The position numbers and the translations under genes are program-made. The notes below the pieces were generated by a model, which worked only from the letters and a program-made list of their open reading frames with translations, was not told the DNA's origin and did no database searches. A stretch of 59,251 bases of DNA, counting the filler, from Basidiobolus ranarum (Eukaryota): NCBI GenBank assembly GCA_040143965.1. It is 6 parts of 6 records of this genome, joined end to end, with 100 filler letters (N's around TTAATTAATTAA, not from the genome) between each part and the next. Parts side by side here need not be neighbours in the genome. Positions count along the whole stretch, not along the records: positions 29,711 to 39,499 come from JASJQH010000783.1; 5 more parts are not named here. One strand, written 5' to 3'. Shown here piece after piece: positions 36,319 through 38,001 of this stretch; position 1 is the first letter of the stretch, and each line of letters starts with the position of its first letter.

Positions 36319-38001
36319 ATGGAACCACCTCTAAAGATTATAGCAGTCAAAAGCTCAATCGCTGGTATTGGGTGGAAGCCACGATATGTCCCACAACTCA
36401 TTGTAGCTAATGTTCATACCCTTGTGTCACATGCGTTTGCCTTTTTGAAGTACATCTTTACTCATGAACTGGAACATAATTCTGCATTCCTTTTGGAGGA
36501 TTTCATTAATGTTGGCTTTTTTAAAGAAGTCTTTTTGCCACCCCTCAATAACTACAAGCCAGACAAACAGAAAGCTTCGACAGAATCAAAGGCCTACAAA
36601 GATCTAATACTCCAATATCGGGATAAGTACTTTCAGTGCTGCTCTTACGAACCAGTCAACATGAAGTATGCTCATCTGATAACTTCTTATGAAGTAGCAA
36701 AAATTGTTACTACTTATCTGAATGGAGTCAATCTTCAATGCGGAAACAAAGTCAGAATGTTTCTTAACTTGTTCTTGAAGAAGAACGAAAGAATCAAGGT
36801 GCTGGAAAGCAAAATGAAGAATAATGGGAGAAGCGAGAAAGAGATTAGGGCAGCCATAAAGACAATAACAGAGCATATAAAGAAGGTCAAGCTGGTTATT
36901 TCGTCAAGAAATATTGAAGATATACCTAAAACATCTCTCTCCTCAAACGATTTAGATAGGATCCATAGTCTTTTTGGTTTGTATTTGACAGATTATCGAT
37001 TTTCTAAAGACTCAATCTATTACGACTGCAAAAGCAACCCTCTCAAGTATGTAAAGGTGTAAGCCAGACTGTCAAGCATGTGCGAAGCTCTCCAAAACAA
37101 ACCATTCAACTGCTTCCTATTAAGAAGGGGCTTTATACCATCCTACATGACAATTGATATGTATATTTTAAATACTCAAATCTTGGAGAATTCTATCACC
37201 AGCCACTTGAATAAAGAAGTAGTATGGGGAACCGTTATTGACCTCACATCAAAGGTAATGAAACCACAAGGAAAAAGCAAGTCAATGAGGTTTAGAGGTA
37301 TGATGTACTCAGATGGTGTAGGTGTGTCGGTGTTAAAGCAAAAATACGATACGAAGAAGGTTTGCGGTGACAGTAGCGCAAAGTCGAAGTCTCCTGCTTC
37401 AGAAGAGGAGTTTCAGTATGTGGAGAAGTTGGGAAGAGAAGAGTTGAAGGCCGGTGTTGGAAAATGTGTGCTAATTGATCCTGGACGTCACGATTTGCTG
37501 TACTGTATGTACGAAGAAAGTACCGCTGAAAACAAAATGGTTTATCGATATACAAACAACCAAAAAGCAATTGAAACAAAATGCAGAAAATTCAGGAAGC
37601 TCAGAGAGAACTTAAAGATAGACCAGGTCATCATAGCTGAGCTTTCCCTATCACTAAAGCATCCTATTGTATATCGTCACGACCTTTTAAGGTAAGCACT
37701 TTTTATATGCAAGTAAAAAATTCAAACCTAATTTCTGTTCAGGTGCTAAAACCAACAGGGTTTAAAGGTGGCCAATACTATTGAAGACTATCCTTTTTGT
37801 CTTTGGAATCGTGGCCTGGCTGCTACTTTGAACTTTAGACATATCCTTTTTAACTTGGGCTCAAATGGAGAAAGACCAGAACGTTTTCTCAGATTGAAGG
37901 AACCTCTCTCTACCGGGTATAATAGAAAAGGTATCTCGTCAGCTAGCAGCAGTCGACCAACGAAAAAAGCAAACAATCCTGTGTGGTTGTCGCTACACTA
38001 A
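36319..38001 (+). mobile_element. Degenerate Fanzor (Fanzor1-like, eukaryotic TnpB/Cas12-related RuvC nuclease) gene
   Basis: Fanzor-type motifs CFLLRRGFIPSYMTID, FRGMMYSDGVGVSVL, RuvC-I CVLIDPGRHDLLYC, zinc-region HDLLR/C.NQ, and RuvC-III-like WNRGLAATLNF...GERPERF. Nonsense TAA at 37060 and 37747, an apparent internal deletion near 37655, and an intron at 37692-37742. Confidence 0.85.

Follow-up and report, generated by a model that had tools for sequence, protein, structure and literature searches.

The window analysed here, a stretch of 59,251 nucleotides (nt) from the fungus Basidiobolus ranarum, carries at positions 36319-38001 of its plus strand a decayed gene of the Fanzor1 family, which runs from an ATG to a terminal TAA and consists of two exons separated by an intron. 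Five linkers of the form N44-TTAATTAATTAA-N44, seen as N runs at 9810-9909, 19711-19810, 29611-29710, 39500-39599 and 49379-49478, split the window into six stretches of about 9.8 kb, so that no physical linkage exists between one stretch and another and a reading carried across a linker would be wrong. The Fanzor1 copy and its neighbours share a single linker-bounded contig of 9789 bp (29711-39499), a length equal to the one on record for the contig of the globin protein P0051. Fanzor1 proteins are omegaRNA-guided endonucleases with a TnpB-like RuvC domain, carried on non-autonomous transposons with inverted repeats (PMC10432273, PMC11423790). An intact Fanzor binds RNA from the 3' end of its element and cuts matching DNA beside a short target-adjacent motif (TAM), and activity, TAMs and omegaRNAs have been reported for SpuFz1, GtFz1 and PpFz1 (PMC10432273, PMC11423790).

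The chains of the Protein Data Bank (PDB) were searched by phmmer with a 571-residue read-through translation of the locus, in which the TAA codons were written as X. This translation matched the Fanzor1 of Parasitella parasitica, PpFz1 (9cf0), with E=2e-94 and the Fanzor1 of Spizellomyces punctatus, SpuFz1 (8gkh), with E=1.1e-22 over query residues 40-447, and all remaining matches had E>1. The alignment to PpFz1 consists of two blocks, query residues 14-456 against chain residues 512-951 and query residues 478-536 against chain residues 1198-1254, and the Fanzor1 motifs FLLRRGFIPSYMTID, FRGMMYSDGVGVSV, VLIDPGR and WNRGLAATLNFRHILFNLGSNGERPERF were all found. The match is far beyond chance and, judged from its sequence, the locus is by descent a member of the Fanzor1 family. 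A preliminary description of this DNA had placed a decayed Fanzor1 gene at these same positions, and had taken it for an inactive fungal relative of TnpB and Cas12. Both proposals are upheld by the two characterised homologues and by the 50 family members described below, and every sequence feature listed in that description was found again in its place. The absence of a significant Fanzor match had been named there as the outcome that would speak against the assignment; the PDB search gave the opposite outcome. Pfam searches of the three open pieces of the gene and of the read-through translation returned chance-level matches only (PGDH_inter, E=0.05). When six homologues were compared with the whole window by tblastn, 36319-38001 was the sole Fanzor locus.

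The homologues P0001, P0003 and P0008 begin at the same point as the ATG at 36319 (MEPPLKI...), and this ATG is preceded by a short leader (36283-36318, plus strand) that can still be aligned with a Rhizopus-type element, L001, the blastn alignment beginning at window position 36283 and L001 position 2184. Exon 1 (36319-37691, plus strand) encodes an N-terminal region resembling REC and WED and the RuvC-I segment, which correspond to PpFz1 residues 512-951, and it also contains the junction of an internal deletion. The RuvC-I aspartate, encoded by gat at 37477-37479 (plus strand) within VLIDPGR, is retained, and D387 and P388 are invariant across the 11 rows of our alignment A1. Exon 2 (37743-38001, plus strand) encodes a zinc-finger remnant, the RuvC-III segment and the C-terminal tail, and matches PpFz1 chain residues 1198-1254.

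Between the exons lies a GT..AG intron of 51 nt (37692-37742, plus strand; gtaagc...ttcag), whose position is conserved and which aligns with a homologous intron of 59 nt in L001. Its removal restores ...RHDLLR joined to C-x-NQQ, as in the relatives (...RHGLLRCKNQQC). The gene models of two homologues, P0003 and P0028, continue into non-homologous residues after HGLLR and HGLLK respectively, and these tails we take to be read-through into the homologous intron. The preliminary description had recognised three open reading frame (ORF) pieces in one frame, and these were recovered in a common plus-strand frame at 36286-37062, 37063-37695 and 37750-38001. It had not noticed the intron, which accounts for the gap between the second and third pieces; that gap is not decayed coding sequence. 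The pieces had appeared to share a frame since the length of the intron is a multiple of three, and the further in-frame stops between the second and third pieces fall within it.

Both stop codons named in the preliminary description are TAA and in frame, and they remain in frame after the intron is removed. The first, at 37060-37062 (plus strand), is a premature stop at a position where homologues have Y or A-Y, and the second, at 37747-37749 (plus strand), stands in place of the lysine of relatives (RCKNQQC), among them the closest homologue, P0002 of Rhizopus arrhizus. The deletion suspected near 37655 in the RuvC-II region was placed at a junction at 37653-37654 (plus strand), directly after AELSLS, which ends at 37651-37653. 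Global alignment to P0002 gave its extent as 147 amino acids (aa), with residues 331-476 gone, and the blastn blocks against L001 gave 444 nt, with 3558-4001 gone. The lost segment contains LLDEFRTSSLCPSC, with the RuvC-II/DEF-TS motif, the [TS][TS] motif and the first zinc-finger CxxC, and it also includes the insertion region. Bao and Jurka defined the [TS][TS]-x-x motif, which precedes the zinc finger (PMC3627910). In exon 2, the alignment to P0002 shows that the last zinc-finger cysteine has become glycine (37759-37761, plus strand; CxNQQG as against CKNQQC). The catalytic RuvC-III position is a glycine, encoded by ggc at 37813-37815 (plus strand), in the motif WNRG at 37804-37815, where P0002, PpFz1 and SpuFz1 have the WNRD of the family; this replacement, too, had been suspected. 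No Pfam match to the C4 zinc finger (TNB/OrfB_Zn_ribbon, PF07282) was obtained in the window, and among seven relatives scanned for the same family three of the four longest scored only 17.6-19.5 bits, below the cut-off of 26.3.

The window copy keeps just one of the three RuvC catalytic positions and one of the four zinc ligands, and it has lost its reading frame together with any recognisable ends. Among the Fanzor1 features tested, homology to characterised proteins and the RuvC-I aspartate (DPG) were present, and five were absent, namely the RuvC-II glutamate region, the zinc finger, the RuvC-III aspartate, an intact frame and a carrier transposon with terminal inverted repeats and target-site duplication. 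The copy is predicted to be unable to act as a nuclease because of its two stops, the 444-nt deletion, the change of the RuvC-III aspartate to glycine and the change of a zinc-finger cysteine to glycine. Its intact ancestor would have been an omegaRNA-guided RuvC nuclease, to judge from PpFz1 and SpuFz1.

PpFz1, whose structures were solved by Xu et al. in 2024 (PDB 9cf0-9cf3), is an intact and active nuclease that uses a 5'-ATN TAM and has an FRI insertion, which binds cyclophilin (PMC11423790). It shares with the window copy the DPG motif of RuvC-I and the C-terminal motif WNR-x-AA-LNFR. In contrast to PpFz1, the window copy has no equivalent of chain residues 952-1197, contains two stops and has RG for RD, and its lineage lacks some 140 additional N-terminal residues that follow the maltose-binding protein (MBP) tag of the PpFz1 chain. 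SpuFz1 is also homologous, but comes from a far more distant chytrid lineage; S. punctatus has 42 Fanzor loci, 19 of them full-length, as reported by Saito et al. in 2023, and likewise holds many partial copies, whereas its loci keep conserved inverted repeats and an expressed omegaRNA (PMC10432273). In 2013 Bao and Jurka described Fanzor1 from Rhizopus, Mucor and Phycomyces and distinguished four Fanzor1 families in R. oryzae RA 99-880; one of these, ROr-4, is MuDR-like and has inverted repeats as well as target duplications of 9 bp (PMC3627910). Their families belong to the same protein family as the window copy and have the same non-autonomous type of carrier, and Basidiobolus is absent from Table 1 of that paper as far as the green algae (PMC3627910).

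A search of 5.8 billion proteins gave 50 homologues of 314-1000 aa at E<=1e-3, and the best of these was P0002 (G6F57_014079), at 74% identity. Named Mucorales accounted for 44 of the 50 (Rhizopus 21, Helicostylum 13, Gilbertella 4, Pilaira 3 and Thamnidium 3) and Kickxellomycotina for three (25-33% identity). No intact Basidiobolus copy was found, none of the 50 being named Basidiobolus. The precomputed Pfam family PF26935.1 is assigned to 46 of the 50; it was not reported for any of the seven homologues in our Pfam-A scan, and it was not used as a test. When 1.84 billion representatives were searched exhaustively by phmmer, 875 proteins were returned at E<=1e-3.

For comparison at the DNA level, metagenome scans were performed. 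With alignment A1 as the query, 592 pattern stretches were obtained and no relative was among them; with P0003 a single locus was obtained, L001, on a contig of 4815 bp. The L001 product has an identity of 99.6-100% with R. arrhizus P0002, and this locus is the nearest relative for which DNA is available. Inverted repeats of 135 nt (1721-1855 and 4446-4580, 89% complementary) enclose its Fanzor gene alone, in an element of about 2.86 kb without a transposase. The preliminary description had remarked that no transposase adjoins the Fanzor1 gene; none is recognisable in the window, and the closest DNA relative is itself a Fanzor-only element with an intron at the same position. L001 differs from the window copy in keeping the RuvC-II and zinc-finger region, WNRD and the 135-nt inverted repeats, of which the window copy has none, and the hosts of the two belong to different fungal phyla. 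By blastn, window 36283-37652 corresponds to L001 2184-3557 at 81.9% nt identity over 1381 columns, and window 37656-38001 to L001 4002-4376 at 74.4% over 375 columns, a block that covers exon 2 and, ahead of it, the intron and the last part of exon 1. Across 535 codons the two are 73.8% identical as protein and 81.4% as DNA, and the Nei-Gojobori method gave 0.548 synonymous substitutions per synonymous site (dS) and 0.146 non-synonymous substitutions per non-synonymous site (dN), a dN/dS of 0.27 that becomes 0.25 for the part before the deletion. At third codon positions the identity is 73%, and the introns of the two can still be aligned.

The Fanzor gene of L001 carries a 1-nt frameshift near position 2430, its frames running over 2187-2432 and 2356-4041, with the consequence that the annotated P0002 begins at an internal methionine; L001, though fuller, may be inactive too. 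Upstream of the L001 element are a 301-aa open frame (1-906, plus strand), cut off by the contig end, and on the minus strand two frames that overlap each other (1318-1729); all of these may be remnants of other mobile elements.

Ten short phmmer matches of high identity were looked up, and three of them proved to be hypothetical proteins of B. ranarum encoded on three different contigs. These are P0179 (K7432_017931, 110 aa), P0186 (K7432_009465, 195 aa) and P0214 (K7432_006899, 158 aa), which by BLASTP are 85%, 76% and 69% identical to the window copy and about equally near to the R. arrhizus-type protein. P0186 reads through the point at which the window copy has its deletion and P0214 has a different internal gap, from which it follows that these are separate copies, differently broken. 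The lengths of their contigs (1625, 11812 and 16961 bp) match none of the contigs that carry the B. ranarum homologues of the globin and transporter genes flanking the window copy, which hints, if weakly, at separate loci. The preliminary description had suggested a Fanzor family in this genome that may have intact copies. Because three B. ranarum proteins are fragments of the same family, the sequences indicate that Fanzor1 is a multi-copy family in Basidiobolus.

Upstream of the Fanzor1 copy is a gene for a globin and protoglobin protein (34214-35350, minus strand; Pfam Protoglobin 6e-38, Bac_globin 9e-17), whose product is 83, 81 and 81% identical to proteins of B. ranarum and 80% identical to one of B. 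meristosporus, as against 46-52% for named Mucorales. Downstream is the N-terminal part of a sugar transporter gene (39057-39398, plus strand; Pfam Sugar_tr 3.3e-11), which is 88% identical to its counterpart in B. meristosporus and 87% to that in B. ranarum, all five of its matches being from Basidiobolus. Genes of Basidiobolus type are present within about 1 kb on both sides of the Fanzor1 copy. That both stand on one contig with it, and that the three B. ranarum fragments lie on three contigs, is our evidence for integration. No transposase was recognised among ten small ORFs scanned in the flanks.

The contig also carries a P-type copper ATPase gene that extends up to 33294 (minus strand). 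The gene at 34214-35350 has a single exon and encodes a fusion of two domains, a bacterial-like globin and a protoglobin; this two-domain form recurs in four Basidiobolus proteins of 365-371 aa, and most other fungal matches have the protoglobin domain only. A 66-aa open frame between this gene and the Fanzor1 copy (35646-35846, minus strand) gave a sub-threshold match to the Sel1 repeat (E=2e-4; 22.1 bits, cut-off 30.7) and may be what is left of another host gene. Sugar-transporter Pfam domains are present in three B. ranarum proteins (P0150, P0151 and P0153) that bear the name 'Bifunctional purine biosynthesis protein PurH' in their source, which is probably a slip of annotation. On the next contig, a 596-aa open frame (42733-44520, plus strand) had no Pfam match at E<=0.001.

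The position of the window copy among its homologues was analysed by maximum likelihood. In a first tree of the 50 homologues and the window copy (51 rows, 564 columns), the latter fell in a clade with 19 Rhizopus rows and one other row, with a support of 98 in the Shimodaira-Hasegawa-like approximate likelihood ratio test (SH-aLRT), as the sister of 15 R. arrhizus/delemar rows and with four R. microsporus rows outside. The R. microsporus copies are in this tree more distant from the R. arrhizus copies than the window copy is. Separating the 44 named Mucorales from the window copy and the three Kickxellomycotina cost 109.3 log-likelihood units (p=1e-6) in the approximately unbiased (AU) test. 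A second tree of 39 rows included P0179, P0186 and P0214 and, for speed, left out 11 of the 13 Helicostylum, two of the three Pilaira and one of the three Thamnidium rows together with the three Kickxellomycotina. Here the window copy was grouped with the three B. ranarum fragments (SH-aLRT 93). The sister of this group (85) was a set of 16 R. arrhizus/delemar rows (98), and both lay within a clade of 26 rows (96) that included R. microsporus. Separating 20 core Rhizopus rows from the Basidiobolus rows and nine outgroup rows cost 37.9 units (AU test, p=0.028). The relatives outside the Basidiobolus group are, in succession, R. arrhizus/delemar, R. microsporus, Gilbertella, Helicostylum and Thamnidium/Pilaira. 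The gene tree conflicts with the host phylogeny, in that the copy nests in Mucorales.

We also looked for the ends of the element and for traces of an omegaRNA. The homology between the window and L001 extends from about 36 nt before the ATG to the stop codon. A repeat search of 33000-41000 for terminal inverted repeats gave just short arms of 72-93% identity; local alignment of 35351-36300 with the reverse complement of 37990-39056 gave an inverted repeat whose score was equalled or exceeded in 32 of 300 shuffles; and the inverted repeats and flanks of L001 had no match on either strand of the Fanzor contig (z<1). An Rfam scan of 35300-39400 at E<=1 returned nothing. The predicted RNA fold of 37970-38225 (256 nt) was no better than that of shuffled sequences (z=+0.25), and the fold downstream of the L001 stop (z=-1.81) was not persuasive. 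Neither an omegaRNA remnant nor element ends could be demonstrated by the L001 comparison, Rfam, folding or repeat searches.

We read the locus as a dead Fanzor1 copy that originated by transfer of a transposon from Mucorales to Basidiobolus, followed by amplification and decay, and assign this reading a probability of about 0.75. It also seems likely that the donor was a Rhizopus-like mucoralean, from which the Fanzor1 transposon would have crossed into the Basidiobolus lineage, multiplied and died there. This course of events is suggested by four observations: the flanking genes are of Basidiobolus type, the copy falls inside the Rhizopus branch, its dS is modest, and B. ranarum has other broken copies. 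The preliminary description had not noticed that a Rhizopus-like element stands here in a Basidiobolus-like host. A horizontal transfer of a Fanzor1 transposon from a mucoralean of the Rhizopus lineage would have been succeeded by limited amplification, of which B. ranarum retains at least three further fragments, and then by neutral decay of the Basidiobolus copies. The two fungal phyla concerned split several hundred million years ago, and the synonymous sites of genes inherited vertically since then are expected to be saturated. The element is 74% identical in protein to its Rhizopus relative, whereas the host globin is about 50% identical to that of Mucorales. The dS of 0.55 may lie below host divergence, which is supportive rather than decisive.

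Much the same tree and distances bear on whether an old Fanzor1 family could have been inherited vertically from the common ancestor of Basidiobolus and Mucorales, its likeness to Rhizopus copies being due to chance. Fanzor1 is indeed widespread in early-diverging fungi (PMC10432273; Table 1 of PMC3627910), distant members exist in Kickxellomycotina at 25-33% identity, and the placement of Basidiobolus is unstable (PMC10079182). Vertical descent is nevertheless quite unlikely, for the window copy nests in Mucorales and, with moderate support, within the Rhizopus clade; its DNA identity of 81%, dS of 0.55 and alignable intron contrast with about 50% identity for the flanking host protein; and R. 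microsporus copies of the same clade are farther from the R. arrhizus copies than it is. The same flanking genes argue against contaminating mucoralean DNA misassembled into a Basidiobolus contig. Although the assembly is highly fragmented, the window itself being made up of six contigs of about 9.8 kb, Basidiobolus-type genes are found within about 1 kb of both ends, so that an artefact would need two misjoins. Moreover, the nearest Rhizopus sequence is just 74% (protein) and 81% (DNA) identical, the copy is heavily decayed, and three B. ranarum fragments of the same family group with it. We therefore regard such an artefact as very unlikely.

A real transfer with another donor or direction, either from an unsampled third party (a mucoralean, a virus or a vector) or from Basidiobolus to Rhizopus, is unlikely, though it has more to recommend it. 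The window has nothing like the non-coding ends that belong to the Rhizopus-type element, the window copy is sister to the R. arrhizus/delemar copies and not nested within them, rows P0001 and P0154 stand just outside in the second tree, and viruses have been proposed as vectors of Fanzors (PMC10432273). However, the successive outgroups of the Basidiobolus group are all Mucorales, which polarises the transfer towards Basidiobolus, and no viral match was seen, in searches of which none was aimed at viruses. Finally, the locus might not simply be dead, its first open piece (36319-37059, 247 aa) or a transcript having been kept for a new role. The dN/dS against the Rhizopus-type copy, 0.27 overall and 0.25 before the deletion, and the retention of the ATG and a short conserved leader would agree with this. 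Yet a ratio below 1 is expected from the time that both lineages spent as active elements, the end branch of the window copy is about four times as long as the Rhizopus path from the same node (0.36 versus about 0.09), which fits relaxed constraint, and the other B. ranarum copies are broken at other places, and we give a retained function very little credence.

Several points weigh against the transfer from Mucorales that we favour. Integration is read from the contig joins as assembled, and the proposal that dS is far below host divergence draws on the identity of about 50% in one host protein and on general divergence times. Composition does not set the element apart from host genes, since its G+C content (0.39) and G+C at third codon positions (GC3, 0.42) are within the range of ten host ORFs (GC3 0.31-0.43). 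The Rhizopus-type repeats and flanks have no counterpart on the contig, and the element actually transferred may have been of that type or of another. The trees were quick searches with SH-aLRT as their sole measure of support, the clades were named with the first tree already in view, and the genus-level AU test was marginal (p=0.028). The end branch of the window copy is long (0.36), and no more than 13-33% of the columns are occupied in the B. ranarum rows, neither their grouping (93) nor their sister position (85) being starred. Basidiobolus is, besides, a 'rogue' taxon that is placed next to Mucoromycota in some studies (PMC10079182); even that placement leaves it outside Mucorales.

The Fanzor1 family is well known and the window copy is a dead member of it, so that a cross-phylum origin is its sole feature of wider interest; the locus is not a source of a usable nuclease, and its value is evolutionary. 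Spread of Fanzors from eukaryote to eukaryote has been proposed in general terms, without a worked example in the passages of the survey drawn on here (PMC10432273). In a full-text search, no paper was found in which Fanzor and Basidiobolus occur together, though supplementary tables of Fanzor surveys may list matches, and a search for Basidiobolus with horizontal gene transfer and transposable elements found none on Fanzor transfer among the papers listed. For the present locus, a donor branch (Rhizopus-type), a recipient (Basidiobolus), a rough divergence (dS 0.55) and amplification after the putative transfer can be read from sequence. If the reading is true, it would provide a concrete and datable case of the spread of an RNA-guided nuclease between eukaryotes, and the fossil would serve as a neutral marker that DNA has really passed from Mucorales to Basidiobolus. 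Such a passage of DNA would bear on the Mucoromycota-type genes in Basidiobolus (CotH and MMPL; PMC10079182) and on its 'rogue' behaviour. It would also serve as a warning that mucoralean DNA is present in Basidiobolus genomes, a point that matters for where the genus, whose position is disputed, is placed and for what is claimed about genes shared with Mucoromycota (PMC10079182).

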